Part shown: piece after piece, positions 8,685 to 39,007 of the stretch
How the letters are laid out: each line of letters starts with the position of its first letter
Position numbering within the stretch: position 1 is the first letter of the stretch
Assembly (NCBI GenBank): GCA_038230515.1
Contig: JBBRND010000015.1
Location: 13,694-77,693 of the forward strand
Reading direction: 5' to 3'
DNA length: 64,000 nt
Origin: Bacteroidia bacterium
Lineage (GTDB): Bacteria > Bacteroidota > Bacteroidia > AKYH767-A > 2013-40CM-41-45
Position numbers and translations under genes: made by a program
Notes under the pieces: model-generated
What the model was told of the DNA's origin: nothing
Databases searched by the model: none
What the model saw: only the letters and a program-made list of their open reading frames with translations

Positions 8685-9317
8685 ATGAAAAAAGTAAATG
8701 CACTCTTAATTGCCTGCATCATTGCGCTGTCAGGCACTGTGGCAAACGCACAGAAATACACCGAAGGCGATAAGACACTGTCTTTTCTTGCCGGAGAAAA
8801 ACTTATCAATATTGAATACAACTACGACAACATGATGGTTGGTAAGAAAACTGAAGAAGAATATAAAAAGGGAAAGATGGCTGACTTCGATAAAAAAGTT
8901 CCGGGCAAGGGAGACAAGTGGGCAAAGAAATGGGTGGATAGCCGCCAGAGTGTTTATGAGCCAATGTTCGAAGAGCTGATAAATAAAATGCTTGCAAAAG
9001 CGAAGATGGATGTAAAATTGGGAACCGGACAAACCACTGCCAAATACACACTGTTTGTGCATACAACAATGACAGAGCCGGGCTTCACCATTCCGATGGT
9101 AATGAAAGTGAATCCGTCATGCAATTTCGAATTTTCATGGATCGAAAATTCATCAAAGAAAGTAATGGCAAAAGGTCAACTGAACAAAGTTGCCGGAGTA
9201 GTAATGAACGATAACGACTGGGAATTTGATCCTTCAAACAGAATAAAAGAATGTTATGCAAAGGCAGGCAAAGTAGTAGGCGTTACCATGTCGAAAGCAT
9301 TAAAAGCGAAGAAGTAA
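8685..9317 (+). CDS. Secreted hypothetical protein.
   Basis: Has a signal peptide (MKKVNALLIACIIALSGTVANAQ). It is followed by a strong terminator. Confidence 0.5.
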   Translation: MKKVNALLIACIIALSGTVANAQKYTEGDKTLSFLAGEKLINIEYNYDNMMVGKKTEEEYKKGKMADFDKKVPGKGDKWAKKWVDSRQSVYEPMFEELINKMLAKAKMDVKLGTGQTTAKYTLFVHTTMTEPGFTIPMVMKVNPSCNFEFSWIENSSKKVMAKGQLNKVAGVVMNDNDWEFDPSNRIKECYAKAGKVVGVTMSKALKAKK

Positions 9318-9332
9318 AATAAACTTCTGAGT

Positions 9333-9373
9333 AAAAAAAAATCCCCCGATATGTATCGGGGGATTTTTTTTGT
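9333..9373. terminator. Bidirectional rho-independent terminator (A-run, atcccccgata/tatcgggggat stem, T-run).
   Basis: A perfect 11-bp stem is flanked by A8 and T8. It lies between the convergent genes ending at 9317 (+) and 9381 (-). Confidence 0.8.
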
Positions 9374-9380
9374 AGCTATT

Positions 9381-11975
9381 CTACTCCTCTTTCTTCTTCC
9401 GCGTTCCTCCTGTTTTTGCCGGTGGAGGAGGTGGTGGTGTGGCTTTCACCACAGTTATCACCAACTCATTTTTCTCTTTATCGAAGTCAGCCATTATGGT
9501 ATCGCCTTCGCCCATTTCTGCTTTAATTATTTCTTCAGCCATTGGGTCTTCCAGATACTTTTGAATGGCGCGTTTCAATGGGCGCGCACCAAAGCTGCTG
9601 TCGAATCCTTTGTCAGAAATATAATCCTTCGCTTCATCACTCAACTGAATTTTGTATCCAAGTTCAGTAACGCGCTTGTAGAGATGCACCAGTTCCACAT
9701 CAATAATTTTGTGAATGTTTTCTTTGGTAAGAGAATTGAACATCACCACATCATCAATACGGTTTAGGAACTCCGGAGCAAATGCTTTCTTCAATGCATT
9801 TTCAATAACACCTTTAGAATGATCTTCCGAGCCCGACATTTTAGTAGCCGTTGCAAACCCAACACCTTGTCCGAAATCCTTCAACTGGCGCGAGCCAATG
9901 TTAGAAGTCATAATAAGAATAGAGTTTTTGAAATCAACTTTTCTTCCCAAGCTATCAGTCAGCGTTCCTTCATCAAGAACCTGAAGAAGCAAGTTGAAAA
10001 TATCAGGATGTGCTTTTTCAATTTCATCAAGCAGCACAACAGCATAAGGTTTGCGTCTCACTTTCTCAGTAAGCTGTCCGCCTTCTTCATAACCCACATA
10101 TCCCGGAGGCGCACCGATGAGGCGGCTAACCGCAAACTTCTCCATGTACTCGCTCATGTCAATACGCACGAGTGCCTCTTCAGTGTCGAATAAATATTTA
10201 GCCAACACTTTTGCAAGTTCAGTTTTACCAACACCTGTAGGTCCGAGGAAAATAAAAGTACCAATCGGTTTATTCGGATCCTTCAATCCAGCTCTGTTCC
10301 GTTGAATCGCCTTTACTACTTTATTGATCGCCTGATCCTGACCAATTACTTTTCCTTTCAACTGATCGCCCATACTAATGAGGCGCGAACTTTCTGTTTG
10401 CGCAACGCGCGTAACCGGAATGCCGGTCATCATGGCAACCACTTCAGCAACGTTTGTTTCATTCACTGTGTAGCGATGGCTCTTGGTTTCTTCTTCCCAC
10501 TGCTTTTTCGCTGCATCTAATTGTTCGAGCAATTGCTTTTCAGTATCGCGGAGTTTTGCTGCCTCTTCATACTTCTGACTGCGCACAACTTTATTCTTCT
10601 CCACTTTTATATCAGCAACTTTCCCTTCAAGATCAAGAATGTTTTTCGGCACATGAATATTTGTGAGATGAACACGGGAACCCGATTCATCCAGCGCGTC
10701 AATTGCTTTATCAGGAAGAAAACGATCGGTGATGTATCGAGCAGTAAGAGTTACACATGCCTTGATTGCTTCAGGAGTGTAATTCACATTGTGATGTTCT
10801 TCATAACGGTCTTTGATGTTATTAAGAATCTCAATACTCTCATCAATAGTTGCCGGTTCAATAAGTACACGCTGAAAACGCCTGTCCAACGCTCCGTCTT
10901 TTTCAATGTACTGACGGTACTCATCAAGAGTAGTAGCACCAATGCATTGAATTTCTCCGCGCGCAAGCGCGGGCTTGAACATGTTCGAAGCATCCAGAGA
11001 ACCTGAAGCACCGCCTGCACCAATGATGGTATGAATTTCATCAATGAATAGAATTACGTCAGGAGATTTTTCCAGTTCATTCATTACTGCTTTCATCCTC
11101 TCCTCGAATTGTCCGCGGTACTTTGTTCCTGCAACGAGTGAAGCAAGATCGAGCGTAACAATTCGTTTATTGAAAAGGACACGCGATACTTTTCGTTGAA
11201 TAATCCGAAGCGCCAAACCTTCTGCAATGGCGCTCTTCCCAACTCCGGGTTCACCAATCAATATCGGGTTGTTCTTTTTTCTGCGCGAAAGAATTTGTGA
11301 TACGCGCTCTATTTCTTTTTCTCTTCCTACAATGGGATCGAGGCGGCCGTCTTCTGCTGCCTTCGTTAAATCGCGGCCGAAGTTATCGAGCACCGGAGTT
11401 TTAGATTTGCTGTCGCTTCCGCCTTTCTTCGTTCCACCACCGCTACCCAGACCGCCTGCGCCACCACCCGCACCACCTTCATCATCTTTTGCATACGGAT
11501 CATCTTCTGCAGGATTGTGAGGTGCTTCACTTTTGAAATTTGATTTCAGCATTTCGAGTTCTTCTTTTACGATGTCGTAAGTAATTCCATACTGATTTAG
11601 AATTTGCGTTGCAATGTTGTCCTCATCTTTTAATATTGAAAGAAGAAGATGCTCCGTTCCGATTACATCGCTCTTGAAAACTTTTGCTTCGAGATAAGTT
11701 ATCTTGAGTGCTTTCTCTGCTTGTTTAGTAAGAGGAATGTTGCTGAGATTGCTCACCGAACCACCACCACCTTTCACGGAATTCTCCACGCTCTTGCGGA
11801 GTTCTGCGAGGTTGATGCCGAGCGAGCGAAGAATTTTCATCGCCATGCCTTCGCCTTCGCGGATAAGCCCTAGCAACAAATGTTCAGTACCGATGAAATC
11901 ATGTGTGAGCCGCAATGCTTCTTCTTTGCTAAATGCGATCACATCTTTTACGCGGGGGGAAAATTTGGCTTCCAT
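9381..11975 (-). CDS. clpC: Clp/Hsp100 AAA+ chaperone, ClpC-like (ATP-dependent Clp protease ATP-binding subunit). ClpB cannot be excluded.
   Basis: Has the Clp N-domain repeats (FIGTEHLLLGLIREGEG twice) and two Walker A motifs (GEPGVGKSA, GPTGVGKTE). A short UVR-like linker (KYEEAAKLRDTEKQL) is present rather than a long ClpB M-domain. Length is 864 aa. Confidence 0.85.
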   Translation of the reverse strand: MEAKFSPRVKDVIAFSKEEALRLTHDFIGTEHLLLGLIREGEGMAMKILRSLGINLAELRKSVENSVKGGGGSVSNLSNIPLTKQAEKALKITYLEAKVFKSDVIGTEHLLLSILKDEDNIATQILNQYGITYDIVKEELEMLKSNFKSEAPHNPAEDDPYAKDDEGGAGGGAGGLGSGGGTKKGGSDSKSKTPVLDNFGRDLTKAAEDGRLDPIVGREKEIERVSQILSRRKKNNPILIGEPGVGKSAIAEGLALRIIQRKVSRVLFNKRIVTLDLASLVAGTKYRGQFEERMKAVMNELEKSPDVILFIDEIHTIIGAGGASGSLDASNMFKPALARGEIQCIGATTLDEYRQYIEKDGALDRRFQRVLIEPATIDESIEILNNIKDRYEEHHNVNYTPEAIKACVTLTARYITDRFLPDKAIDALDESGSRVHLTNIHVPKNILDLEGKVADIKVEKNKVVRSQKYEEAAKLRDTEKQLLEQLDAAKKQWEEETKSHRYTVNETNVAEVVAMMTGIPVTRVAQTESSRLISMGDQLKGKVIGQDQAINKVVKAIQRNRAGLKDPNKPIGTFIFLGPTGVGKTELAKVLAKYLFDTEEALVRIDMSEYMEKFAVSRLIGAPPGYVGYEEGGQLTEKVRRKPYAVVLLDEIEKAHPDIFNLLLQVLDEGTLTDSLGRKVDFKNSILIMTSNIGSRQLKDFGQGVGFATATKMSGSEDHSKGVIENALKKAFAPEFLNRIDDVVMFNSLTKENIHKIIDVELVHLYKRVTELGYKIQLSDEAKDYISDKGFDSSFGARPLKRAIQKYLEDPMAEEIIKAEMGEGDTIMADFDKEKNELVITVVKATPPPPPPAKTGGTRKKKEE

Positions 11976-12326
11976 AAAGTTTCTCTTTTAAAAATTAAAA
12001 CGTTTAAGTTAAGTTATCAAGTGCTGTAATTTGTGTGCAAAGTTACGCAGGTTTTTGTGGTTTGCAATTACCGTACAATCACCTTCAATCTGCCGATCCG
12101 TCAGTTTTTATTTTCAACACAATTTTGTTGACGGTTGCATTCTCTTTTAATTAGTCGAGGAGATGAGAACTCTCTTTACTTTTTTGTGATAAAACCGTCA
12201 GTTAATTGAAGTGGATTGAGTACCTTCGTTCACTATTTTAATAGTACGAATAACGAATGGTTTCGCACTTACGAAACCCTCGAAAACTTCCAACTTAACT
12301 TTAAACATTAGACCTAAAACTTTGGC

Positions 12327-14909
12327 ATGGCTTCAGGAGAAAGAATAATTCCGATTAACATCGAGGAAGAAATGAAAACGGCTTACATTGATTATTCAAT
12401 GTCAGTCATTGTGTCGCGTGCGCTGCCCGATGTTCGCGATGGATTAAAACCTGTACACCGTAGAGTGCTTTACGGAATGCTCGACCTCGGAGTGTTGAGC
12501 AATCGTCCCTATAAAAAATCTGCAAGAATAGTTGGAGAGGTGCTTGGTAAGTATCATCCGCATGGAGACAGTTCTGTGTATGATGCCATGGTTCGAATGG
12601 CGCAGGAATGGAGTTTGCGCTATCCGCTTGTTGACGGACAGGGAAATTACGGAAGCATGGATGGCGATCCTCCGGCAGCAATGCGTTACACAGAGGCGCG
12701 CTTCAAAAAGATTGCGGAGGAAATGCTTAATGATATTGACAAAGATACCGTTGACATGGCGCTCAACTTTGATGATACATTAAAGGAGCCAACAGTTCTT
12801 CCTGCAAAAATTCCAAACCTTTTAATGAATGGTTCTTCAGGAATTGCAGTGGGAATGGCAACCAACATGCCTCCTCATAATCTTACCGAAGTTATTGACG
12901 GCATCATCGCATACATCGCGAATAAAGAAATTACAATTGATGAGTTGATGCAATTCATTAAAGCGCCCGACTTCCCTACTGCAGGAATTATTTACGGATA
13001 TGCAGGAGTTCAGGAAGCATTCAGAACTGGACGCGGAAGAATTGTTCTTCGTTCGCGCGCTGTCATTGAACAGCATAATGGTAGGGATAGAATTGTCGTT
13101 ACTGAAGTTCCTTACCAGGTTAACAAGGCGGAGATGATCAAGCGCACGGCTGATCTGGTGAATGAGAAAAAGATTGAAGGCATTACTGACATCCGTGATG
13201 AATCAGACCGCGAAGGTGTTCGCATTGTGTATGAATTAAGGCGCGATGCAATTTCAAATGTGGTGCTTAATAATCTTTACAAACAAACTTCTCTGCAATC
13301 GTCATTCAGTGTAAACAATATTGGATTGGTTCACGGCAGACCGATGACTCTTAATCTGAAAGACCTCATAGTGCATTTTGTAAATCACCGCCATGAAGTG
13401 GTGATCCGTAGAACACAATACGAATTAGCAGAAGCAGAAAAGCGTGCACACATTCTTGAAGGGTTGTTGATCGCTCTTGATCATCTTGACGAAGTGATTG
13501 CATTGATACGTGCTTCACAAACCCCCGACATTGCACGTGACGGATTGATGGTGAAATTCGGTCTCTCCGAAATTCAATCCAAAGCAATTCTTGAAATGCG
13601 TTTGCAACGTTTGACAGGACTTGAGCGCGATAAGATTAAAGCAGAATATAAAGAGTTGATGGAACTCATCGAATACTACCGCGACATACTTGCGAATGAG
13701 GATTTGAGAATGGACATCATCAAAGACGAACTTTTGGAAATAAAAGATAAGTACGGTGATGCGCGGAGAACAGAAATCGTTTATACAGGCGATGATATTT
13801 CCATGGAAGACATGATTGCTGACGAAGATGTGGTGATCACGATTTCTCATGCAGGTTATATCAAGCGCACTGCACTTACTGAATACCGGGCGCAGGGCAG
13901 GGGAGGGCGAGGAGCAAAAGGAAGCGCCACACGCGAAGAAGATTTTGTGGAACATATTTTTGTTGCATCTACTCACAACTACATTTTATATTTTACTGAA
14001 TTGGGCAAATGTTATTGGATGAAGGTGTATGAAATTCCCGAGGGAACAAAGACATCAAAGGGCAGAGCGATTCAGAATTTGATTTCACTTCCTGCTGATG
14101 ATAAAGTGAAAGCATTTATCAACGTGAAGAATTTGACGGACGAGGAATACATCAACAATAATTTCGTGGTGATGTGTACCAAGAATGGAACGATTAAGAA
14201 AACATCGCTCGAAGCATATTCACGTCCGCGGCTGGCGGGCATAAATGCCATAAACATTGAAGCAGGGGATGTTTTGCTTGAAGCCCGTCTCACGAATGGG
14301 AAAAATGAAATAATGGTAGCTACCAAAAAAGGAAAGGTAGTTCGCTTCAATGAAGAAACTGTTCGTGCTGTAGGAAGAAATTCAATTGGTGTGAGGGGAG
14401 TAACGCTTGATGGCGCTGATGATTTTGTAATCGGCATGGTCTGTGTGAATGATGTGTTGAAGGAAACCGTGCTTGTTGTTTCAGAAAAAGGATACGGTAA
14501 GCGAAGCGATGTAGAAGAGTACCGCAAAACAAATCGTGGAGGAAAAGGCGTAAAGACAATAAACATCACTGACAAAACAGGAAACCTTATCGCAATAAAA
14601 ATTGTTGACAACAACGATGACCTGATGATCATTAACAAATCCGGAATTACGATACGAATGAATGTGGATGAGCTTCGCGTAATGGGAAGAGCCACACAAG
14701 GTGTTCGACTTATAAAGCTGGATGATGATGATGAAATTGCATCGGTAGCAAAGGTGGAAGTGGTGGATGAAAAGAAAGCAGAAGACATTGAAACTGCTCT
14801 TCCGCCAATTGATTCTGCAACCGCTGCTCCCGCTCCTTCTCCTGATGAATCAGGTTCTGCCGAAGACCAGGATACAGAAAGCACAGATGAAAATAATCCT
14901 CAGGAATAA
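12327..14909 (+). CDS. gyrA: DNA gyrase subunit A.
   Basis: Contains the N-terminal [28 protein letters not shown] with the active-site Tyr region, and the QRL pinwheel repeats. The acidic C-terminal tail is typical of Bacteroidetes GyrA. Confidence 0.95.
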
Positions 14910-16216: not shown

Positions 16217-16457
16217 AAAAGTTATTAGTTTTCGTAAGCAAACTAAAACCCAAATTTCGATAAAATTAATTTTCATACTAATCTGCGCACTTTTTATTTT
16301 TTCATCGTTAAGTTCTCAGGTAAGAAGCTATGTTTTTTTTCATAAAGAATGTTTTGAATTAATTACAAATAAGACTTTGTAAGGTTCTTTATGCAAATAT
16401 CAAATGAGTACTGATTTTTTACGGATATGATTGGCGGTATTCTAATGTAATCAGCAA

Positions 16458-17321
16458 TTATACACTTACCATTGTTGCCGCCTGAGCCCCGGGAAAATTT
16501 TGAATGCCAATTGATGCATCAGCTACAACTGCCCAAGCAAAGGACTTATTAAAAACATCCAAATAATACGATGATAAAAAAGTAACAATTGGATAGGGTG
16601 ATCCGTTGTTTAACGCAGCTAGTTTTAAAAAGGAAGCATAATCAAATTTTTTAAAGTTACCAATGAACATAATATTTAATGCCAGTCCTGTTACTGCGGT
16701 AATGGCACCTTGAAAAATACAGATATTCATTTCTCCGCTTTTAAAATTAGAAATATCAAAATTGTAAGTGTCTCTCCCATTCATGCCATGCAGCATTGAA
16801 TTGGAACTAGTTGAACTTTGTAATGCATCCAGATTAGAACCCTTAGCTCCTGAACTTATCACGGAGTAAATTTTACCTTTTACCCAACTTGCAATTTTGC
16901 TTGCAGCTACGAGATAGAATCTATTTGCAAGAGCTTCTGACCCTTTTAAAGCCCATGATGTTATTTTTCCACCTATGACATCCGGCATGTTAAAGGCTTT
17001 ATTTTTCGAAAGAAAGCTTAAACTAATATTTGCAAGGATAATATCTTTGGAAATGGGCACTCCTTTTCCCCAAAATTTTCTTTGAAAAGGAGATGGAAGA
17101 CCTGAGTAATACTTGTCATAAAATTTTTCATTAAAATCAGAGTCTGTAACGGGCGACTCCGGTTTGCCTCCTAATGCATTTTTAATATTGGCTTCCGTAA
17201 ACTCTAATGGTACAATGGGAAAAGTTGCTTTACCGATACCTCCACCAATAATAATGTTAATTGAATTGGTAGCTGTCAAACTTTCACCTGGTTCAAATCC
17301 AAGTATGAGTGGTGTTCTCAT
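16458..17321 (-). CDS. Hypothetical protein, a possible effector-like cargo next to the Hcp-like gene.
   Basis: A 287-aa ORF with no signal peptide and no recognised motif. It sits in an AT-rich islet flanked by long AT-rich spacers. Confidence 0.4.
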   Translation of the reverse strand: MRTPLILGFEPGESLTATNSINIIIGGGIGKATFPIVPLEFTEANIKNALGGKPESPVTDSDFNEKFYDKYYSGLPSPFQRKFWGKGVPISKDIILANISLSFLSKNKAFNMPDVIGGKITSWALKGSEALANRFYLVAASKIASWVKGKIYSVISSGAKGSNLDALQSSTSSNSMLHGMNGRDTYNFDISNFKSGEMNICIFQGAITAVTGLALNIMFIGNFKKFDYASFLKLAALNNGSPYPIVTFLSSYYLDVFNKSFAWAVVADASIGIQNFPGAQAATMVSV

Positions 17322-17466
17322 GATTTATAGAATTAGCAATTTGAATTTTTTAAAATGAGCACTGGCGTTTTTCTACAATTTTATTTAAGATGAAAGATAA
17401 AATTGATTTCGGGGTTGTCGAAGGTAGAGAGGAAATTAAGCAAAGGCATATGAATTCTTTTTAAAA

Positions 17467-17497
17467 TAAAACATGCGACCTTGAAGGTCGCATGTTT
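17467..17497. terminator. Bidirectional terminator (aaaacatgcgacc-ttgaa-ggtcgcatgtttt).
   Basis: A perfect 13-bp inverted repeat with A4/T4 flanks lies 22 nt downstream of the stop of the Hcp-like gene. Confidence 0.75.
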
Positions 17498-17518
17498 TGA
17501 ATTAGAATAAGAACCTGA

Positions 17519-17917
17519 TTACGTGTTAGCAGGCCAAGGATTCTCGTGCTCTGCAGTACCCATCTTGATCTTCTTTGCAGAGATCGTGAAGCGTGTAGTC
17601 ATCGGGTTGCTGCCAACCGTGTCAATACTCTCGCCAAACTGAATGATGTACGATTCTTCGAATTCAAGCGTCTTCAAAGCAGCAGAATCACTGCGTTTGT
17701 AGAAAGTAATTTTTCCGTTTTTTACTTTGTGCGGATCAGCCATCCACTCAAGGATGCTGTTGTCTTCGGTAGCTTCAACTTCACATTGAATAGTACCACC
17801 ATAAAGAACAGAAGAAGGGCGACCTGATGCATCAGTATCTCTGCGAAGAGCGTAGTCGCAATGGAGGAGATTAATTTCATCTCCGCCATCAATGCTAAGG
17901 GTTGATTTGAAAGCCAT
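17519..17917 (-). CDS. Hcp/TssD-like tube protein (Bacteroidetes T6SS-iii type or contractile-injection tube protein).
   Basis: A 132-aa protein beginning MAFKSTLSIDGGDEINLLHCDYALRRDTDASGRPSS...GGTIQCEVEATED. Size, N-terminal pattern and layout are reminiscent of Bacteroidetes TssD. Monocistronic with its own strong terminator. Confidence 0.5.
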   Translation of the reverse strand: MAFKSTLSIDGGDEINLLHCDYALRRDTDASGRPSSVLYGGTIQCEVEATEDNSILEWMADPHKVKNGKITFYKRSDSAALKTLEFEESYIIQFGESIDTVGSNPMTTRFTISAKKIKMGTAEHENPWPANT

Positions 17918-18227
17918 TTTTTTTTTTGGTTTTTAAAGATTAAATTATTTGTTTGATTTATGATGCAAATAAACGAGAAACGGGAAGTTGCGTCAATGCG
18001 CACTTAGCAGTTGGCTGAGTTACTCGGACAATTAGCATCTGGGGAATGTGGATTGCAATGAGATTGAATTAAAGATTGTAAAGCGTATGCTTTTTTAGTT
18101 CACTCATCTCCTTATAGGATAATGAGAGAAAATATTTTTTTATGATATTCCGGTTATTGATGTTGATTTAATTTTTTTTTTAATCATCACGAAATATAAT
18201 GGGGCTTTATTTGTAAAACTTTTTAAA

Positions 18228-18587
18228 ATGAAAATACATCTCTATCAACTCACAAAAACAGAAGCATTCCGGCTGAGTAAAAAAGCACTTACAAAAATGG
18301 GCTTCGTTATTCACCTTGCCGATGGCGAAAAAGGATTGATGAGTGGAAGCAGGAAATCAAACCACACTTCTCATGTTACTTTTTTTGATATTCAGTTTGC
18401 GCTGAATAGTTATATAACCATTTCGCTTATATCAGATATTTTTTCGAGCAGCACAGGAACCTTTATTGCTGATGCAGTGAGTGAAGAACTTTTTCTTGAA
18501 ACATTTCACGACCTTTTGCGCATTCAGCCGCCCGATAATGCTTTACGCTTGACATATGAGGATTATGCAATGGCGGTAGGTTTCTGA
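18228..18587 (+). CDS. Hypothetical protein.
   Basis: A 119-aa ORF divergent from the Hcp-like gene. No motif recognised. Confidence 0.35.
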   Translation: MKIHLYQLTKTEAFRLSKKALTKMGFVIHLADGEKGLMSGSRKSNHTSHVTFFDIQFALNSYITISLISDIFSSSTGTFIADAVSEELFLETFHDLLRIQPPDNALRLTYEDYAMAVGF

Positions 18588-23078: not shown

Positions 23079-24020
23079 TTATTTATTTATTGTAGGTTTA
23101 TAATCATAACGAAAAAGAAAAGGTTCCGCATCGACATTCCCTTGTGTAAGCGCTGGCTTTATATTTTCAAATATTGATTGCACAACCTTGAATTGAGATG
23201 TTTCAATTAACCCAAAACCTACTAGCATAGTATATGATCTAATTGATAAACTATCATCCATTTCATTATAGCATGGAGCATCTACATATATAAGACATCC
23301 AATAGTTTTTTCGTTTCGCTTTGCATCCCAACCGGATTTATGCTTCTTAAAGAATTCTTCTGCAAAGAATCGTAATTGAGAATCCAATGACGTATTATTG
23401 GGAGCGCGAAGTGTATAATGATCTTTATTAACCAATTTACTAATTGAAATTGCAACTAGACCATAACCTTTTGCATCAGATGAATATCTTTTGTCTAATT
23501 GGCTGTAAGCTTTAGCAACATTGCTTGAAATCTGCTTTTCGCTGGATGGACGTTTGCACTCTATATAATAATTACCATCTAAAGTTTGATACTCCAAGTC
23601 ACTTTCATTGCCGAAAACAATGTCGTATCCTCCCATTAACAATGTTGCCCCTAAAAATAGTTCAAATCCAATATCACGTGGATTATTTGTTGATTTCAGA
23701 GGATTCTCATCATCAATATTTATTGGGCCATTGATATAAGTCTTTAACCTTCCTATAAGATTTTCTGAAATGTTTGTTTTAGTTAGTCCCGAATAAATGC
23801 TAACAAGTTGATTTATCTCATAAAAAGCCTTCCCGAAATTATTATATTCTTCTGTTTCTTGTAAACTCTTATGTGTTCCGTTTTGAATGGCGGAAATGTA
23901 TCCGGCTAAGTATTTTCTATGATTATGTATTCGTGTATTAGATTCTATTCCCAAAGATTTAAGCATGGCAATAAATGAATCTAAATTAGCCAACTGGACA
24001 TTTAAATTATCAGTATACAT
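23079..24020 (-). CDS. Hypothetical protein with a PD-(D/E)xK nuclease-like core, a candidate restriction endonuclease.
   Basis: Middle region reads DIGFELFLGATLLMGGYDIVFGNESDLEYQTLDGNYYIECKRP, giving E...D...ExK with canonical spacing. It lies 75 bp downstream of the DUF262-HNH gene on the same strand, and the region is AT-rich. Confidence 0.35.
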   Translation of the reverse strand: MYTDNLNVQLANLDSFIAMLKSLGIESNTRIHNHRKYLAGYISAIQNGTHKSLQETEEYNNFGKAFYEINQLVSIYSGLTKTNISENLIGRLKTYINGPINIDDENPLKSTNNPRDIGFELFLGATLLMGGYDIVFGNESDLEYQTLDGNYYIECKRPSSEKQISSNVAKAYSQLDKRYSSDAKGYGLVAISISKLVNKDHYTLRAPNNTSLDSQLRFFAEEFFKKHKSGWDAKRNEKTIGCLIYVDAPCYNEMDDSLSIRSYTMLVGFGLIETSQFKVVQSIFENIKPALTQGNVDAEPFLFRYDYKPTINK

Positions 24021-24095: not shown

Positions 24096-25259
24096 TTACC
24101 GATTTCCTTTTGCCCGATTGTGTGTCTTGCATAACATCTGACAGTTTTTAGAATCAGTAGCGCCACCTTTGCTCCATGCTGCTACATGGTCGGCATCCAT
24201 TTCTACCAGCTTATAAATCTTACCCTTGTTGGCATCATTTCCAAGGGCACAAAGCGGACAGTTTGATTCATCTTTAGTTTCAGCAGTTTTAGTTTGCGTT
24301 GAATAAACAGATTTTTTAGTTGCATCATCAAACACGCGCACTTCCAACAACTTTGTGTCCACCGAGCCGCCAAGGATGAATTCAAAAACACCCTTTCGGT
24401 TTTTGATATACGGATCACCGTAGAGCTTTTTTACTTCGGCTGATACCTTCTTAGGATCATACGCTGTGTTATGATATTCTTCATAGAGGCGACCCCATTC
24501 TAATCCGCACATTTCGCTTTCTACATCTATAAATGTGGTTGAAACCCAATCAATCACTGTGTTGAAATAGGTTTTTAATTCTTTGATGTTTTTGTCTTTG
24601 CGATGGCGGCTCATGTATTCATCAATGCCGCCTTTACTTACCCAGTCTAAGGCGCGTTCTAAAAACGCCTGCCTGTTGGCGCTGCCCTTTATATAGGCGC
24701 TCCATTTTTGGATGTTAGAATTTTGGCTGTTGCTAAACTCCTCTTTGCCGAGTGTGACAAACGGACCGGAATAAATTGAGTTGAGCAATTCCTGATGACT
24801 GAGCGGAACACCTGCAATGTTGATGGTTTTGAACCACTCTTTTATCTCGCTCTCTTCGCCTTCACATTCATAAATGAGAATTTGAGTTTTATAAATCATA
24901 GCCCTTTTATCATCCGCAATACCGTCAAAGTATTGCTCCATGCCGTTTTCATCTTTCACGGCAAATTTGTTGGTGACATAGCGCCCGAAGCTGGTGATGC
25001 GCTGTTGCCCGTCTAACACTTCAAATTTATCGTCACTCACTTTTACGAAATAGATCAAGCCCAAGGGGTAGCCCTTGAGGATAGATTCAATAACCGCTAC
25101 ATCTCTTTTGCCATCGGCATAGATATAGTTACGCTGATACTCCGGCTGTATGGTGAGTTTGCCGCTCAAGCCAAACAGCCCTTTGCCTTCCAATTCATTA
25201 TACTGAAAGCCCTCGCAAATATCTTTGACAGTGATGTTGGTTATTAGTGTTGTTTTCAT
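24096..25259 (-). CDS. DUF262 (ParB/Srx-like, DGQQR motif) N-terminal domain fused to a C-terminal HNH endonuclease. This is the GmrSD/BrxU/SspE-like architecture.
   Basis: The N-terminus has [10 protein letters not shown]...[10 protein letters not shown]. The C-terminus has CPLCALG...[32 protein letters not shown], an HNH His-Me finger with CxxC...C pairs. Its start overlaps the MTase stop by 4 nt. Confidence 0.6.
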
Positions 25260-26356
25260 TTGGTTGTTTTCTTGTGCTTGATAAGTATTCGAGTATAAAG
25301 CCTTTTGTTATTTACATACCCCCTATCTAACTTGCCTTTCCACTTAGAGTTAACTAATTCAGGTAGAAGTCCATCTTTGACATAATAATCGCTTCCAACA
25401 ATTTCAAACTGCTCAGGAGAATATTTATCAAGAAAGCTAATCGGCACACCCATCACACCATCAAAATCACTTGGGATGTATTTGACAAATGGCACTTCAA
25501 TTGCATCATAGTTATCATATTTTTCAAACGGTTTTTTAGTACCAAATTTTATTAGGTCCTCCTTGTTCATTAATGCCAACGGTTGATGACGTCTTCCATG
25601 GTCTATGTTGGTGAACCAACATGAATTTCCAAGTCTTGTATAATCCCCTACATATCCAAGTCGAGCTGCTTTCTGTCGGTCTTTTTCATCAACTTCTGTC
25701 CCTTTTGGAACAGCAAAGACCATGTCGTTAACAAAACCCGTTGCTCCCAACCAAATTTTATTTTCTTTTATCAATGGAAAAACTTCTGTGTAAGTTATAG
25801 CATTTATACTACCAATTATCACAAACTGCTTATTAGCCTCTATAACCCACCCTAAAAAATCACGAAACATTGAGAAAGGCGGATTGGTGATGATGATGTC
25901 GGCTTCATCGCGCAGCTTTTTTATTTCTTTACTATTAAAATCACCATCGCCTTTTAAATAATGCCACTCTAAGTCATCTACATCTATTTTTCCATCACCG
26001 GTGTTGTCGCGGGTGAGGGTGAAAATCTTTCCGTGTTTGGTGGTTTTCTTTTTATCGTATTGCGGAGCGCGTTCTTCAAACAGCGAGGGCTGGTAACCGC
26101 TTTTGTATTTTTTACTTTCGGCAGCATAGCTGGTGCTGATGAGTTTTTTCAAGCCAATGCGCTGAAAGTTTTGAGCAAAAAATTTAGTGAAGTTGCTCCA
26201 CTCCGGGTCATCGCAGGGCAGCAGCACCGTTTTACCACGAAACACTTTAGGGTTGTAATCCAAGTAGGCATTGATCTCTTTTTCTATATCGTGGTATTGC
26301 GTGTAGAACTCATCGTTCTTTGCCTTTTTTGCGTTGGTGAGATTACTGTTTGCCAT
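25256..26356 (-). CDS. N6-adenine DNA methyltransferase, EcoRI-methylase-like.
   Basis: The N-terminus [21 protein letters not shown] resembles the M.EcoRI family start. It has a catalytic IITNPPFS (NPPF) motif and an FxGxG-like AdoMet region. Confidence 0.65.
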
Positions 26357-26505
26357 ATTTGCTCAAAGAGAATTTAAGAACTCTGTGAAATTTTTCAGAA
26401 GCCGAAAGTCCACATTTCTCTTCTCCCCACCAAATTGAATTCTTCTCTTACAGAAACCTTACACTTTTCTTTAAACCTTCTAAATTTTAAAAATTTCTCG
26501 CAATA

Positions 26506-26950
26506 CCGTGAACTTTGCGGACTAAACAGCGAGCAATAATCTCTAAACATTGAACTTTGCGGGCTAAACCGTGAACAAGATTCTCTAAACACTGACCTTT
26601 GCGGGCTAAACCGTGAACAAGATTCTCTAAACACTGACCTTTGCGGGCTAAACCGTGAACAATTTTCTCTAAACACTGACCTTTGCGGGCTAAACCGTGA
26701 ACAAGATTCTCTAAACACTGACCTTTGCGGGCTAAACCGTGAACAAGATTCTCTAAACACTGACCTTTGCGGACTAAACCGTGAACAATTTTCTCTGAAC
26801 ACTGAACTTTGCGGACTAAACCGTGAACAATTTTCTCTGAACACTGAACTTTGCGGGCTAAACGGTGAACAAGTTTCTCTGAACGCTGAACTTTGCAGAC
26901 TAAACGGTGAACAAGTTTCTCTGAACGCTGAACTTTGCAGACTAAACAGC
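26506..26950. repeat. Tandem array B: about 10.5 copies of a 42-bp unit made of two 21-bp half-units (ctaaaccgtgaacaagattct + ctaaacactgacctttgcggg). The sequence drifts progressively along the array.
   Basis: Example units lie at 26564-26584 and 26585-26605. The array occupies almost the whole spacer between the smc stop (27182) and the MTase start (26356). The overlapping 191-aa ORF is a repeat artefact. Confidence 0.9.
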
Positions 26951-27181
26951 AATGTTACTTTTCCAAACATGAAACATGCTGCACATTACATGGTTGTTAT
27001 GAGGGTAGTGCACGAGGTTATAGCAGAAGAATTTTCCGCGTGTTTGCCCTGCTGCAAACTTTACACTTCAGACCTTAAATTAATCAGATTGATTTAAAAC
27101 GCTACCCGAGAAAAGTTCGGAGGCGTTTTATTTGCGTATTTACTTATTCGTAAATTCGAAACGATCAGCTATTCGCACAAC

Positions 27182-31177: not shown

Positions 31178-34100
31178 ATGGGACAAAAAATTTACCTCCC
31201 GCTCATTCTTTTCATTGCAAGTTTTTCAACTGCTTCTGCACAGTCAGGCGAAATTCGCGGACAGATAAAAGAGAAAGGTGGCAAAGACGGAGTTCCGTTT
31301 GCCAGCGTGGCAGCAACACAGAGTGGTGAGCAAGTCATTGCAACCTTAACTGACCTTGACGGTAACTACACATTGAAACCCCTTGGTCCGGGTAAATACG
31401 ATGTGAAAGTAACTTGCGTTGGTTATAGCCCCGCACAAACAAATGGTGTCTTAGTCACTGTTGATAAAATTTCTTTCGTAAATATCGAAGTAGGAAAAGG
31501 CGTTGAATTGAAAGAAGCGGAAGTTACAGATTACAAAGTACCTCTTCTTGATAAAGGACAAACAGCGGTTCAGAAGACAGCCACTTATGAAGAAATTCAG
31601 GCGGCACCTTTGCGTGATGTAAATTCGATAGCATCTCAGTCGGCAGGAGTTTTCCAGCGAGATGAAGGAAAAGAATTGAACGTTCGTGGTTCCCGTTCTG
31701 ACGGCACCGCCTATTATGTTGACGGTATTAAAGTAAGGGGTAATCCAAACATTTCCGCTAAGGGTGCAGAGCAGATTACTGTAATCACAGGTGGAATACC
31801 TGCTCAGTATGGAGATGCTACTGGAGGTATTGTTGCAATAACAACAAGAGGTCCGTCACCGGTTTTTAATTACGGACTGGAAGGAGAGAGTTCTCACTTT
31901 CTTGATGCGTTTGATAATAACCGTTTGTCTGCATCTTTTTCAGGACCAATTTTTGTTTCTCATGATTCCATCGGAAAGAAAACTACTGTTGCGGGATATT
32001 TTATTTCTGCTGACTGGTTATATGACAAAGATCCCAGCCCCTCTGCAATAGGGCAATGGGTAGTGAAAGACGATATTCAAAGGCGACTTGAATTATCCCC
32101 GCTTATTAAATCGTCTACAGGACAGGGTTTTGATAGGCGTGCTGATTTTCTTAGCTACGATAGTTTGGAACATCAGAATGAACGAAAAAATGTTGCACGT
32201 CATAAATACACCATCAACGGGAAACTTGATTTCAGGCCTTCGAAAAATTTCTACATCACTGTGGGGGGAACTTATGATCATGAAAAAAGGCACGACTTTA
32301 TCGATATTTATTCTTTGATGAACTCGTATAATAATAATCAGGTAACTGAGAATCAATATAGGGTATTTGGAAAAATTCAACAACGCTTCGGTGATGAAGA
32401 GTCACAAAAGAATAGTGCTTCGGTTGTAAAGCATGCCTACTACACCTTACAGGCGGATTACACAAAGAACACTAAAGAAGATGGCAACGATGTGCACAAT
32501 GATAAAATATTCCGCTACGGATATGTTGGAAAATTTACGACCCATTTGGAGGATTTTACTTTTCACAATACTCAATTTATAAATGGGGCCGATACCACTT
32601 ATCATGATTTAGTCCTTCAGGACGCAGCAATTACAGCTCCAGTTGATTATGTTCCGTATTCAGGAAGCGCTTACACTTCTGCTTATGCGACACAATTCTT
32701 TGATCTCGTTCCGAATAATTTTACAGAAGGACAGATTCTATCAAATAACGGAATCATTAATGGAGATAACCGGATCGCATTGAATACATACGGACTTTGG
32801 GCACTTCCAGGTCGGACAAGGAATGGGTATCAAAAAACAGAGAACAACCAGTTCCGCATTATTGCTTCGGGATCTGCAGATATAAAAAATCATAACATCG
32901 TTCTGGGATTTGAATATGAACAGCGCGAGGATCGTGGATATACTGTTTTCCCAAGCGGCTTGTGGTCTTTGATGAGAGGTCTTGCGAATTCCACTTTGAT
33001 CAATTACGAAGCTGCTCCTTATTGGACTGGGGTAGGGGCAGATTCTGTTGCAAACCTTCAGTTTATTTATACTCAGACAAAAAATCTCGCAGGTGAAAAT
33101 GCAAAAGGTTTTTATGAAAACGTGAGAGATAAGTTCGGGATTAATTATCACCGTTATGTTGACATTGATAATTATTCTCCCGATGATTATTCGCTTACTA
33201 TGTTTTCTACAGATGAATTGTTAAATAACGGAATTGTTAGTTATTACGGTTATGATGCGCTTGGCAATAAAACAATAAGCAACCCAAGCGTTACTGACTT
33301 TGTCAATAATAAAGATGCAACAAATAATTTTACCCGCTCTATCGGTGCTTTCCGCCCAATTTATGTAGCAGGATATATTCAGGATAAATTTACATTCAAC
33401 GATATTATTTTCAACATTGGCTTGCGTGTGGATCGCTTTGATGCAAACCAACATATATTAAAAGACAAATATCTTCTTTATCCTGCCTATACAGCTGGCT
33501 CACATGAAGTTAAAGACAGGTTCCCTTTCTATACTGTGCCAGGCAATATCAGTTCTGATGCGGTGGTGTATGTAAATGATGTGAAGAATCCTTCCGGAAG
33601 CGGACCCATTGGTTTCCGCGATGGAGACAAGTGGTACGATGCGCAGGGAAACTCAATTACTGATGTACAAAAATTAGCGGAGATAAGTGGCACGGGTATA
33701 GCACCTTTTGTTCAGGAAAAATATTTTGATGCACTGGACAAAAAATTGCTTACTGCTGATGCATTTGGTGACTACGAACCTCAAACTTCATTTATGCCTC
33801 GTATTGCTTTCTCCTTTCCGATTTCTGATGAAGCATTTTTCTCAGCTCATTATGATATTCTAACGCAACGACCCCAGAATGCAGAAGAAATTCGTTTCCG
33901 TCCTGAACTTTATTATTTACTGGCACAAGGAAATTCATTAACATCTCCTAACCCTTCGTTAAAGCCCGAGAAAACTACTGACTACGAGATTTCTTTCCAA
34001 CAAAAATTATCTCGTAGTTCCGCATTATCTCTTTCTGCATTTTACAAAGAGTTGAGAGATAATATTGAAATTACTAGCGTGCAATTTGCGTTCCCGATTG

Positions 34101-34873
34101 ATTATTATACTTATAGCAATATTGATTTTGGAACGGTGAAAGGATTGACATTATCGTATGATCTAAGGCGTACAGGAAATATTCGGATGAATGTAAGTTA
34201 CACCTTGCAATTTGCGGATGGAACAGGATCAAGTTCCGGATCAAATAGTCGCTTAATAGCCCAGCAGGGACAAACAAATTTACGGGAACCCAAACCATTG
34301 GATTTCGATCAGCGCCATCAACTTACTGCTTCATTAGATTACCATTATGGAAAAGGCAAGGATTATAATGGTCCGGTTTGGTTCAACAAACAAGTACTTT
34401 CTGAAACTGGTTTGAATCTGACATTCCGCGCTGGCTCAGGAACGCCTTATACCCGCAAGAAAAATATTACTCCGGAAGCCGACTTTACAACTGCAGCAAA
34501 CGGGCGATTCCAGTTAGACGGTCAGATAAATGGTTCACGTTTGCCTTGGCAATACCGCGTTGACTTAAAAGTTGACAAACATTTTGAATTGAAAACCGGA
34601 AAAAAACCAAACGGTGAAAAAAGAAGACCATATTCCATTGGAGTTTATGTGCAGGTACTCAACTTATTTGATGCACGAAATATTATCTCAGTATATTCTG
34701 CTACCGGCAGTCCGACTGATGACGGGTATCTCTCCTCTGCTGCTGCCCAAAACGACATTAACAACAAGTTGAGCGTTGCTTCTTACAAAGCACTTTATGA
34801 AATTGCAGACAACAATCAGGGAAGTTACAGTTTGCCAAGACGCATCCGCCTTGGATTACAACTTGATTTTTAA
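31178..34873 (+). CDS. TonB-dependent outer-membrane receptor-like protein with an N-terminal carboxypeptidase-regulatory-like domain.
   Basis: Has a signal peptide, a CarbopepD_reg-like stretch (GNYTLKPLGPGKYDVKV) and a plug-like region (NVRGSRSDGTAYYVDGIKV). The 1231-aa beta-rich body ends ...LGLQLDF, with a C-terminal aromatic residue. Confidence 0.6.
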   Translation: MGQKIYLPLILFIASFSTASAQSGEIRGQIKEKGGKDGVPFASVAATQSGEQVIATLTDLDGNYTLKPLGPGKYDVKVTCVGYSPAQTNGVLVTVDKISFVNIEVGKGVELKEAEVTDYKVPLLDKGQTAVQKTATYEEIQAAPLRDVNSIASQSAGVFQRDEGKELNVRGSRSDGTAYYVDGIKVRGNPNISAKGAEQITVITGGIPAQYGDATGGIVAITTRGPSPVFNYGLEGESSHFLDAFDNNRLSASFSGPIFVSHDSIGKKTTVAGYFISADWLYDKDPSPSAIGQWVVKDDIQRRLELSPLIKSSTGQGFDRRADFLSYDSLEHQNERKNVARHKYTINGKLDFRPSKNFYITVGGTYDHEKRHDFIDIYSLMNSYNNNQVTENQYRVFGKIQQRFGDEESQKNSASVVKHAYYTLQADYTKNTKEDGNDVHNDKIFRYGYVGKFTTHLEDFTFHNTQFINGADTTYHDLVLQDAAITAPVDYVPYSGSAYTSAYATQFFDLVPNNFTEGQILSNNGIINGDNRIALNTYGLWALPGRTRNGYQKTENNQFRIIASGSADIKNHNIVLGFEYEQREDRGYTVFPSGLWSLMRGLANSTLINYEAAPYWTGVGADSVANLQFIYTQTKNLAGENAKGFYENVRDKFGINYHRYVDIDNYSPDDYSLTMFSTDELLNNGIVSYYGYDALGNKTISNPSVTDFVNNKDATNNFTRSIGAFRPIYVAGYIQDKFTFNDIIFNIGLRVDRFDANQHILKDKYLLYPAYTAGSHEVKDRFPFYTVPGNISSDAVVYVNDVKNPSGSGPIGFRDGDKWYDAQGNSITDVQKLAEISGTGIAPFVQEKYFDALDKKLLTADAFGDYEPQTSFMPRIAFSFPISDEAFFSAHYDILTQRPQNAEEIRFRPELYYLLAQGNSLTSPNPSLKPEKTTDYEISFQQKLSRSSALSLSAFYKELRDNIEITSVQFAFPIDYYTYSNIDFGTVKGLTLSYDLRRTGNIRMNVSYTLQFADGTGSSSGSNSRLIAQQGQTNLREPKPLDFDQRHQLTASLDYHYGKGKDYNGPVWFNKQVLSETGLNLTFRAGSGTPYTRKKNITPEADFTTAANGRFQLDGQINGSRLPWQYRVDLKVDKHFELKTGKKPNGEKRRPYSIGVYVQVLNLFDARNIISVYSATGSPTDDGYLSSAAAQNDINNKLSVASYKALYEIADNNQGSYSLPRRIRLGLQLDF

Positions 34874-34884
34874 AAGAATATAAT

Positions 34885-37800
34885 TTGAAAACAGCTAAGA
34901 ACTCTATTCGCACCAATATGAAAAAAATTATCATAACATCTTTTTGCATCTTCTTTTCGTTCTATTCATTGCTTGCAAAAGAAAACGTAAATTCGGGATC
35001 CGGACATCGCAATGGACCCATAGGGGGCGATCATCCACTTGCTTCGTGCAATGCATCTACCGCACAAACTGATCTCGACATTAACAATGTCCGCACCAAA
35101 ATTTTTATCAATGGAGATATGTGGTGGGATCTTGTTGGTACTGCAACTTACGAAGTTCCGAAGGGCTCTGGAAAACATTCCTTATTTGCAGGAGCTGTTT
35201 GGGTCGGTGGATTTGATAACAACGGAAACTTAAGAGTTGCAGCTCAAACGTATCGTCAGTCGGGAAGTGATTTCTGGCCCGGTCCAATTGATACTCTCAC
35301 AACCGATGTGACACCCGATGTGTGTACTAAATTTGACCGGCATTTCCGCATTACCCGTGATGAAGTGCAGGAAGCAATTTCTCATTTCACTGTGCCAAAT
35401 GGATACCCTGCCGGGTACCTCCCTCCGCAGGTTATGCAAGATTGGCCCGGTAATGGAGATGATCCTGAGCATGGAGCAGGGCCTGGCTACACGCATTTCT
35501 TAGCTCCTTTTTTTGATCGCAATTCAGATGGCATTTATGATTGGCAGGATGGTGATTATCCCTGGTTTGAATTAACATCATCAACACCTGTGTGCGATGA
35601 TCGTCTGCTTGGGGATCAATCGTTGTGGTGGGTTTTTAATGACGTTGGAAATGTGCATCGCGAAACAGATAGTCCATCCCCAATCGGGTTGGAAATTCAA
35701 GCGCAGGCGTTTGCATTTGCAACCAATGATGAAATAAATAACATGACTTTTTACAAATACAAAATTATCAACAGGAATACTACCACAAATATTGATAGTT
35801 GCTTTTTTGGAGCATGGGTAGATCCTGATCTCGGAAATTACAACGATGACTATGTGGGCTGCGATGTAAAACGTGGATTTGGATATTGCTACAATGGGGA
35901 TGAGAATGATGAGGGTATTGCAGGATACGGATTTAATCCTCCTGCCGTAGGAGTTGATTTTTTTCAGGGACCCGCTGCTGATGTTGGTGATGGAATTGAC
36001 AATGATCGGGATAGTTGCATTGATTGTACATTTATTACGAATGCTCAGGGAGGAATTGATACTATTTCCGACACAATTAAACCGGAACTGATTATCATGT
36101 CAAAGTTTGTTTATTATAATAACGATTTCACTGTTGTTGGAAATCCTGTTGGTGCTCAAAATTATTATGGATATCTTAATGGGGTATGGAAAGATAATGT
36201 GCAAATGACATATGGAGGAAATGGAAAAGGAGCGGGTCCTGGAGCTACCACCGATAAGTGTGACTTTATGTTCCCTGGTAACTCTGATCCAAATCACTGG
36301 GGGACTAATGGTTTGCCAGAAGCTGATTGGGATGAGGTAACAGCCCAAAATCTTCCTGCCGATAGAAGATTTTTGCAATCATCGGGACCTTTTACATTAC
36401 TTCCAGGTGCTGTGAACTATATTACAACTGGTGCTGTGTGGGCAAGAGCTACAAATGGCGGTCGTCTCGCATCGGTTAGATTGGTTCGTCAGGCAGATGA
36501 CTATGCGCAGGCGCTTTTCAATAATTGCTTCAAAGTGGTTGATGGACCCGATGCCCCAGATATAACTATACGTGAATTAGACAAGGAATTAATTATGTCT
36601 ATTGATAACAACAAAATATCTAACAATTACAAAGAGAAGTACAGCGAAATTGATCCTAATACATCAGTAACAAGTTTCTATTCTTTTCAAGGCTATCAGA
36701 TATTTCAAACAGTAGATCCTTTTGTAACAGTATCCGATGTTCATAATCCTGATAAGTCACGCCTCGTTGTGCAGTGTGATATTAAAGATGGAATTTCTCA
36801 GATAGTAAACAATTATTTTGATCAAACCACTCAAGGTTGGAGTCCTGTTGAAGAAGTTAATGGAAGTGATGTTGGTTTAAAACATACATTTAGAATTACA
36901 ACTGATTTGTTTGCGCAAGGAGATCCCAGTTTAGTGAATCATAAAACGTATTACTTTATCGCTGTCGCTTATGCATACGATGCAGGTGAGTCTGCTGGAG
37001 ATCCTTACGTTCCTGCCGGAAGAAATCAGCCATATAAATCCGGAAGAAAAAATATTAAAATCTATACTGCGATTCCACATTCATCAGATCCCGAAAACAC
37101 TGGAACGGTTTTGAATGCTTCTTTTGGTGATGGTCCTGAAATTACACGTATTGAAGGAACAGGTAACGGATTCCAGTTGGGTGGGGACCGCGCTTCTCTT
37201 GATCTTAAAAATGATGCGGAGTATAGTAAATTGTTTTACTCTCCCTTTATGATTGATCACCCAACTTATGTTAAAGCCAGAGGCCCCGTAGATATCCGCA
37301 TTTATGATCCAATTGCTATTAAAGGAGGCAATTTTAATTTATGGGAGACGGCAAAGTTGGATACGTTTATTAATCCTGCCGATACCGTTGGATATGATTC
37401 TTTAGTAGGGACTTATTTCACAGTATTTAATACTGACACAACCTATCATTACGTTGTGTCCGATACAATATGGATATTAAAGGATTCAACTAGTGGTCAG
37501 ATTGATACTTCGCTTAAAACATTGGCTTCACCTTTTGATCAGTTATTTCCTGAGTTCGGTTTTTCTATCAACATGGCTCAAACCCTTCAACCGGGTGCAG
37601 ATGCAACTGGGGGAGCCGGATTTATTGAGTCCACGATAAGTTATGAAATACCCACGCAACGATGGTGGGGAGGTATTTATGATGATGATACAGATCCAGG
37701 TTTGGATTGGATAAAAAGTGGTAAAGAAAGTACAGATTATGCCTTTACGACCAACGGTTCTAAAGATGGTCAGCAAGTTTATGAAAAGATAGTTGGAGGG

Positions 37801-38988: not shown

Positions 38989-39007
38989 TTATTATCAAAC
39001 AGAACTT

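Follow-up and report, generated by a model that had tools for sequence, protein, structure and literature searches.

The tssD-X locus

We analysed a 64,000-nt stretch of a Bacteroidia genome assembly (GCA_038230515.1, contig JBBRND010000015.1, positions 13,694 to 77,693 of the forward strand), referred to here as the window. It carries tssD (hcp), a gene for the inner-tube protein of a type VI secretion system of type iii (T6SS-iii), and next to it a gene for a 287-aa protein of an undescribed family, here called X. We consider it probable that the two genes form an auxiliary ('orphan') T6SS-iii module consisting of a tube protein and a partner. Its parts would be an intact, major-type tssD, transcribed and terminated separately, and an independently transcribed X. 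A first-pass annotation of the sequence had listed the 287-aa neighbour, a divergent open reading frame (ORF) of 119 aa (orf119) and the AT-rich spacers, and all of these are present (Table 1).

Table 1. Features of the tssD-X locus, in window coordinates
Feature	Position	Strand	Basis
tssD (hcp), T6SS-iii inner-tube protein, 132 aa	17519..17917	-	PF17642 match over full length
X, 287 aa, undescribed T6SS-iii-linked family, predicted beta-barrel	16458..17321	-	ORF and family search
orf119, 119 aa, divergent, coding-like, module membership unproven	18228..18587	+	Codon score
Presumed promoter/leader, conserved 5' region of tssD	17918..18061	-	Nucleotide identity to L015/L016
Intrinsic-terminator-like hairpin 3' of tssD, ATTTT included	17463..17498	-	Sequence read, ViennaRNA fold, inverted repeat I1
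AT-rich spacer, X stop to convergent TPR gene; left edge is the synteny breakpoint with relatives	16217..16457		

The spacers have a GC content of 0.31-0.34, compared with a window mean of 0.405. The GC content of tssD is 0.449 and that of X is 0.360, with a GC content at third codon positions (GC3) of 0.26 for X. The codon-usage scores of tssD (0.39), orf119 (0.31) and X all lie inside the range of the housekeeping genes of the window (reference 0.34 ± 0.07). The 197-bp gap between tssD and X contains a hairpin, AAAACATGCGACCT-TCA-AGGTCGCATGTTTT (17468-17498, minus strand), which is followed by ATTTT. This had been described as a terminator with a perfect 13-bp stem; the hairpin is there, but its stem is 14 bp long, closed by a loop of 3 nt. 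The 66-nt segment containing it has a minimum free energy of -21.7 kcal/mol (ViennaRNA), and the hairpin was not among the calls of a simple consensus terminator scanner.

The 144 bp 5' of tssD show 66% nucleotide identity to two other loci with a closely similar TssD (L015 and L016, described below), falling to ~35-38% farther upstream and downstream, and this conserved stretch presumably acts as the promoter or leader of tssD. No exact copy of the Bacteroidetes -7 box, TAnnTTTG, was found upstream of tssD, X or orf119, and an Rfam scan of the window gave zero matches. A TTTATTTG(C/T)A-like motif recurs (direct repeat D2) 3' of X at 16376-16399, 5' of tssD at 17948-17971 and 5' of orf119 at ~18200-18215. 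The copy 5' of tssD falls inside the stretch conserved in L015 and L016, and the motif may be a lineage-specific promoter element. Considered as an immunity or partner gene, orf119 was left unassigned, since it has no homologue in any of the T6SS loci compared and no family match in Pfam, NCBIfam, PADLOC or PHROGs.

Identity of the tube protein

Judged by its sequence, the 132-aa protein is a genuine T6SS-iii TssD/Hcp. It had been named as such from its general resemblance, with a profile search proposed as the check, and the profile confirmed it: the match to Pfam PF17642 has E = 2.7e-46 and 157 bits (cut-off 25.8) and runs the full length of the model, positions 1-128 of 128. The solved Bacteroidales TssD proteins (7yw0, 8gra and 9qwl) were matched over residues 1-129 with E ~ 6e-35 and Hcp1 (6bdc) with E = 6e-30, while the matches to the minor Hcp2 and Hcp3 of B. 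fragilis were weak (E = 4.5e-9 and 8e-6, respectively). Since the similarity to the 7yw0-like TssD proteins far exceeds that to Hcp2 and Hcp3, the window protein appears to be of the major, tube-building type rather than a minor recognition Hcp. Its best match in GTDB representative genomes, at 58% identity, is encoded by the tssD of a clpV-tssB-tssC-tssD row in a Flavobacteriales metagenome-assembled genome (L004). A metagenome scan with TssD returned a single locus (L017, 36% identity).

When 15 billion proteins are clustered at 90% identity, TssD has five other members in its cluster. No other protein falls into the clusters of GyrA, the TPR protein, the two response regulators, the LysM glucosaminidase, X or orf119. 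By cluster membership, the tube protein is better conserved across these organisms than gyrase A (12327-14909). The context was read for two of the five other members, L015 and L016, and the gene order in both is deaD-tssD-vgrG. Organisms whose TssD is at least 89% identical carry tssD-vgrG, so that T6SS parts are present in the wider lineage. The tssD coding sequences of the window and of L015 share 80% nucleotide identity, and the fact that 56 of the 79 differences fall at third codon positions points to purifying selection on tssD. The homology of this region to L015 and L016 ends at the tssD stop codon.

The X family

The first-pass annotation had found no recognisable domain in the 287-aa protein, and this stood up to searches of Pfam, NCBIfam, PADLOC and PHROGs, none of which gave a match. 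The X profile likewise matched no PDB sequence at E ≤ 10, the Bte1 complexes included. X has a mass of 30.9 kDa, and no signal peptide is apparent from reading its N-terminus (MRTPLILGFEPGES). Searched exhaustively with a profile, 1.84 billion representatives of 50%-identity clusters gave 36 hits at E ≤ 0.001, X included, most of them 240-290 aa long, and a word-indexed search of 5.8 billion proteins gave three clusters besides X. There was no tblastn match to X in a plasmid collection, and a metagenome scan with alignment A1 found no relative.

Among 29 family members, no Pfam domain was detected save for one N-terminal extension: in P0025 (363 aa) a PG_binding_1 domain (1.4e-14) is fused to the X barrel. 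A second member, P0020 (323 aa), carries an acidic, low-complexity extension of ~65 residues before the X domain. Thus, the family tolerates N-terminal additions. P0035, an RTX-repeat protein of 1192 aa, was rejected as a member; only its GxNGxDTYN motif matches, and the match is spurious because the conserved X motif LxGxNGxDTYN resembles the RTX calcium-binding nonapeptide. X was also rejected as a divergent Hcp, hhalign giving a probability of 0.1% against the TssD alignment, and no Pfam Tss model matches it among the T6SS-iii core components (TssB, C, E, F, G, K, N, O, P, Q, R, ClpV and VgrG).

X homologues lie inside T6SS-iii clusters

The genomic context was readable for six X homologues outside the window, located on nine contigs. 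All six lie inside T6SS-iii clusters, and the family hidden Markov model (HMM) finds X nowhere else in the loci compared. Among the homologues read, the context of the family is therefore exclusively T6SS-iii, and the link between the neighbour gene and the T6SS that had been proposed from its position was upheld. In three T6SS-iii loci of Spirosoma (L005-L007) and in L004, the HMM detected no X at a distance of up to 10 kb from tssD; X is not universal in T6SS-iii, and it is therefore a T6SS-iii-linked gene limited to some lineages.

Within these clusters X is found either directly 3' of tssD or closing a vgrG-DUF4123-PAAR-effector cassette just before clpV, and the next gene (clpV or vgrG) follows after 15-62 bp. 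The order is clpV ... tssB-tssC-tssD-X in L002 and tssC-tssD-X-vgrG-147aa-tssE-tssF in L003. In L009 and L011-L014, which represent three lineages, the order is tssO-?-tssN-tssG, then, divergently, tssD-vgrG-DUF4123-PAAR-~660aa-X-clpV-tssB-hcp2-tssC. In L008 it is X-clpV.

X diverges faster than every core gene except TssG. Between L009, L011 and L013, TssC is 90-95%, ClpV 81-88% and VgrG 61-68% identical, and X is 45-57% identical; for L002 and L003 the values are 90% for TssC, 97% for TssD and 79% for X. The window X is closest in type to those of L002 and L003 (39-40% identity). The window TssD is 30% identical to the TssD of the same two loci, 36-40% to those of L009, L011 and L013, and 58% to that of L004. 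Because these patterns disagree, X and tssD do not have a common history, and the differing histories, taken with the low GC3 of X, suggest that X arrived separately from the resident tssD. We conclude that X was probably acquired separately.

In L009, a 328-aa gene (8984-9970) with the metzincin-type zinc motif HEIGHRLGLPH (HExxHxxGxxH) stands between the ~660-aa gene and X. The insertion of this gene marks the region before X as one of variable cargo. Among the loci, only the lineage of L009 and L010 has the 328-aa gene, whose product is a candidate metalloprotease effector of the T6SS-iii.

This arrangement raises the alternative that X is an immunity protein against the ~660-aa or the metzincin-like effector, the window copy being an orphan immunity gene that protects against the T6SS attacks of neighbours. 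X does stand right behind the putative effectors of the vgrG-DUF4123-PAAR cassette in L009 and L011-L014, it evolves fast, and it looks non-enzymatic and like a binding protein; orphan immunity genes are, moreover, well known in Bacteroidales. However, X directly follows tssD in L002 and L003 with no effector upstream, and it is present both in L009 and in L011 and L013 although L009 carries the extra effector. A length of 250-290 aa is large for such a protein, and the N-terminal peptidoglycan-binding domain of one family member would be odd for cytoplasmic immunity. We therefore judge an immunity role for X to be improbable.

The T6SS-iii loci collected for these comparisons contain several further genes of interest. 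A second Hcp paralogue with a serine-rich C-terminal tail lies between tssB and tssC in L009 (13837-14325), L011 (14034-14528) and L013 (13985-14518). This tailed, fast-evolving minor Hcp shares only 31-35% identity among loci in which TssC is 90-95% identical. Between clpV and tssB in L002 (5908-7468) are genes for a 343-aa protein with a weak NlpC/P60 match and for one of 151 aa that matches a CHAP / AIM3-BBC1 cysteine-peptidase fold (2e-17), both candidate cell-wall amidase effectors amid core genes. The Spirosoma loci L005-L007 have three tssD paralogues within 3 kb (~10001-13100), 31-42% identical to the window TssD, and no X homologue.

Predicted structure of X

The first-pass annotation had suggested predicting the structure of the 287-aa protein. 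An AlphaFold model built on a 33-sequence alignment had a predicted local distance difference test (pLDDT) score of 80.5 and a predicted template modelling score of 0.76; a model from a 4-sequence alignment, with a pLDDT of 45, was discarded. The retained model comprises eight long beta-strands together with several helices, and confidently predicts a beta-barrel of roughly eight strands whose helical inserts are variable. The conserved parts of the protein are the strands (residues 1-41, 88-104, 171-225 and 260-287), and the helical inserts, at 105-170 and 226-259, vary between members and have a lower model confidence. The 41 N-terminal residues, predicted to form a beta-hairpin, are among the best-conserved parts. 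X is a single domain conserved over its whole length and not a modular polymorphic toxin.

A Foldseek search of the PDB and BFVD with the model gave no match with E < 0.05 or a template modelling score above 0.25. The likeness of X to the Vap proteins of Rhodococcus equi, PagL, the OmpA barrel and avidins, at 3-12% identity, is one of generic fold and permits no functional inference. X differs from the Vap proteins and other small 8-stranded barrels in being about three times longer and in having large helical inserts.

The pair is isolated at a synteny breakpoint

That no other T6SS genes lie nearby had been noted before, and this was found to hold for the whole 64 kb. When all large ORFs were surveyed with Pfam, tssD was the only T6SS gene detected, and the survey returned housekeeping, polysaccharide-synthesis, transporter, restriction-modification and TonB/type IX secretion system (T9SS)-type genes. 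As a check independent of Pfam, every ORF of at least 90 aa from nine T6SS-iii loci was compared with the window by tblastn, and the only matches were tssD, X and an 864-aa Clp ATPase. The last of these was rejected as ClpV and assigned as the housekeeping ClpC on account of its UVR motif and its 92% identity to the clpC product encoded beside gyrA in a relative, against only 34-40% identity to the ClpV proteins of the T6SS loci.

Relatives were found through the TPR protein (78-82% identity; GyrA 90%, ClpC 92%), and have clpC-gyrA-TPR in common with the window. Beyond TPR they carry pentapeptide, Por_Secre_tail, M16 peptidase, TPR, DUF1702 and FAD genes, none of which occurs in the window, and they have neither tssD-X nor the pair of response regulators at this position. 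In the relative L020, nucleotide and amino acid homology to the window ends at ~16208, at the TPR stop codon. We found no meaningful direct or inverted repeats flanking the tssD-X locus; the window has no tRNA gene, and the large ORFs surveyed show neither integrase nor transposase domains. A clean insertion is not demonstrable, because only the left flank (clpC-gyrA-TPR) is conserved and there are no repeats or mobility genes; on the sequence comparisons the locus is a synteny breakpoint. The earlier proposal of an insertion between gyrA-TPR and the response regulators is therefore not supported: relatives with clpC-gyrA-TPR do lack the pair, but the response regulators are not a conserved neighbour. 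Nor are these a two-component pair, as they had been called, since one is a receiver-only protein of 128 aa and the other an OmpR-type regulator of 233 aa, with no histidine kinase.

A type II restriction-modification pair with a 4-bp gene overlap (24096-26356, minus strand) consists of a GmrSD_N+HNH endonuclease (PADLOC REase_II, 2.3e-84) and an EcoRI-like adenine methyltransferase (Pfam 2e-124). It is adjoined by a 313-aa gene (23079-24020) with a GC content of 0.32 and no known domain. Taken with tssD-X, the restriction-modification pair and the low-GC gene give ~16-27 kb of the window the appearance of a variable region.

An isolated tssD-X at a breakpoint, with no further T6SS gene in 64 kb, could also be what is left, in decay and without current function, of a T6SS locus that was lost or rearranged, and the relatives with a closely similar TssD do have vgrG after tssD instead. 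This is hard to reconcile with the state of the genes. Both ORFs are intact and of full length, with every family-conserved position present and gene-like codon scores; the third-position bias against L015 indicates that tssD is under purifying selection, and both the upstream region and the terminator of tssD are preserved. We regard decay as a very doubtful explanation.

Possible roles of X

In the Bacteroidales T6SS-iii, the gene beside hcp encodes the cognate effector of that Hcp, which binds inside the Hcp ring through an N-terminal pair of antiparallel beta-strands; one such effector, the 33.9-kDa Bte1, changes its fold so that the ring can hold it (PMC13035841, PMC13213661). It is also common for a T6SS to be supplied by orphan hcp islands at a distance from it (PMC13098142). 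X agrees with this picture of a cargo in its position, its size, its lack of an apparent signal peptide and its conserved N-terminal hairpin. Its fast divergence, its low GC3, its discordance with TssD in the window, the variable region before it in L009 and the PG_binding_1 fusion of one family member are cargo-like as well. One hallmark of effectors, adjacency to hcp, vgrG or PAAR, is shown by the window X and its homologues. The window arrangement is a minimal one of two genes, which suggests that TssD and X are a functionally coupled pair.

We therefore picture the module as follows. TssD hexamers would form the inner tube of a T6SS-iii that has the genes for its sheath, baseplate and membrane complex in other parts of the genome, and X would cooperate with this distant machine, being loaded into the Hcp ring by the conserved beta-hairpin at its N-terminus and expelled along with the tube. 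We infer all three elements of this picture, i.e. the secretion of X, its binding to Hcp and the distant T6SS. The most likely role of X, which we put forward tentatively, is that of a non-enzymatic, Hcp-loaded substrate.

Several observations weigh against a module of tube protein and cargo. The conserved columns of X are mainly Gly, Asn, Pro and aromatic residues, with no conserved catalytic-type residue and no toxin domain. No immunity-sized gene stands beside X in the homologous loci and the ~240-bp spacer in the window contains no credible ORF of at least 20 aa; this absence is atypical for antibacterial effectors. X sits a fixed 15-20 bp 5' of clpV in three lineages despite X identities of 45-57%, a spacing which looks operonic and core-like rather than cargo-like. 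The divergences of X and TssD are weakly correlated (Spearman 0.49, p = 0.065, from non-independent pairs). Finally, tssD is the sole T6SS core gene seen in this genome, as viewed through the 64-kb window. Since there is neither an immunity candidate nor a conserved catalytic-type residue, X is unlikely to be a classical antibacterial toxin, and the first-pass suggestion of an effector and possibly immunity module is not sustained; orf119 has no counterpart in the T6SS loci compared.

Some of these observations give weight to a different role, in which X is not secreted but is a T6SS-iii accessory or assembly factor ('Tag'), such as a helper in tube polymerization or capping or in ClpV-linked recycling, replacing the absent TssA. 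The window would then keep X with tssD because both act together. The fixed place of X before clpV in three lineages, its position between tssD and vgrG in another, the conservation of its one domain over the full length, and its want of both an immunity partner and catalytic residues all fit such a factor. The T6SS-iii, moreover, lacks TssA, and several of its tag genes are uncharacterized (PMC13584744). On the other side stand the patchiness of X, missing from the surroundings of tssD in the three Spirosoma loci and L004, and the small size of a family with only 36 hits in 1.84e9 cluster representatives. X also diverges faster than all core genes but TssG, and its low GC3 and the disagreement of its tree with that of TssD suggest exchange. 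Taken together, we find an accessory role somewhat unlikely.

On the most far-reaching reading, X might found an unrecognized class of T6SS-iii component, a small beta-barrel that travels with the Hcp tube or acts on it and needs no immunity, present here in a two-gene cassette of tube and partner that can be exchanged independently of the machine. We consider this unlikely. If it were true, X could be a secreted 'non-toxic' substrate, ligand-binding or membrane-active, or it could be the TssA-like factor for tube assembly that is missing in some Bacteroidota lineages.

Other genes of the window

Two further regions were noted. A 191-aa ORF at 26395-26970 (minus strand) has a codon score of -0.40 and a weak match to phrog_30105 (1.7e-6), and may be foreign or miscalled. 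At 31178-40078 (plus strand), a TonB/SusC-like receptor of 1231 aa is followed by a 1367-aa ORF without a Pfam domain and by a weakly PorV-like ORF of 395 aa; the trio may be an uncharacterized outer-membrane or T9SS-related set.

Comparison with known systems

Orphan hcp modules are ordinary, and the locus itself adds little; the novelty lies in the partner family. The X family is new in having no Pfam model and no solved relative, a confident beta-barrel model, T6SS-iii contexts only and no immunity partner. Little of the T6SS-iii outside the gut Bacteroidales has been characterized, no TssA equivalent is known for it, and it was only in 2026 that rules for loading the Hcp of this subtype with cargo were set out. 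With its tight link to tssD and clpV, the X family is a concrete candidate either for a new class of non-toxic substrate or for a lineage-specific assembly factor.

The window resembles the orphan hcp and hcp-vgrG islands, such as the auxiliary clusters of Vibrio cholerae (PMC13098142), in that hcp lies outside a main cluster, is followed by a T6SS-linked gene and is thought to serve a T6SS elsewhere. It differs in being of the T6SS-iii type, in having no vgrG, PAAR, adaptor or immunity gene, and in a partner from an undescribed family with no toxin domain; the main T6SS is, in this genome, a presumed one. With the hcp-effector cassettes of Bacteroidales GA3, in which Hcp2 or Hcp3 is paired with Bte1, Bfe1 or LysM (PMC13035841, PMC13213661), the window shares a gene for a protein of ~31-34 kDa, without a signal peptide, just 3' of a T6SS-iii hcp. 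A further likeness is the N-terminal pair of beta-strands, predicted for X too, as a possible loading region. In contrast to these cassettes, the window TssD appears to be of the major, structural type and not a minor Hcp for recognition, X has no immunity gene after it, and it is one conserved barrel domain instead of a loading module joined to a variable toxin. The tagA, tagB and tagC genes of Bacteroidales are, like X, lineage-restricted genes of uncharacterized mechanism kept inside T6SS-iii loci (PMC13584744). X, modelled as a beta-barrel, differs from TagA and TagB, for which helical repeats of the TPR/PPR-like kind are described.

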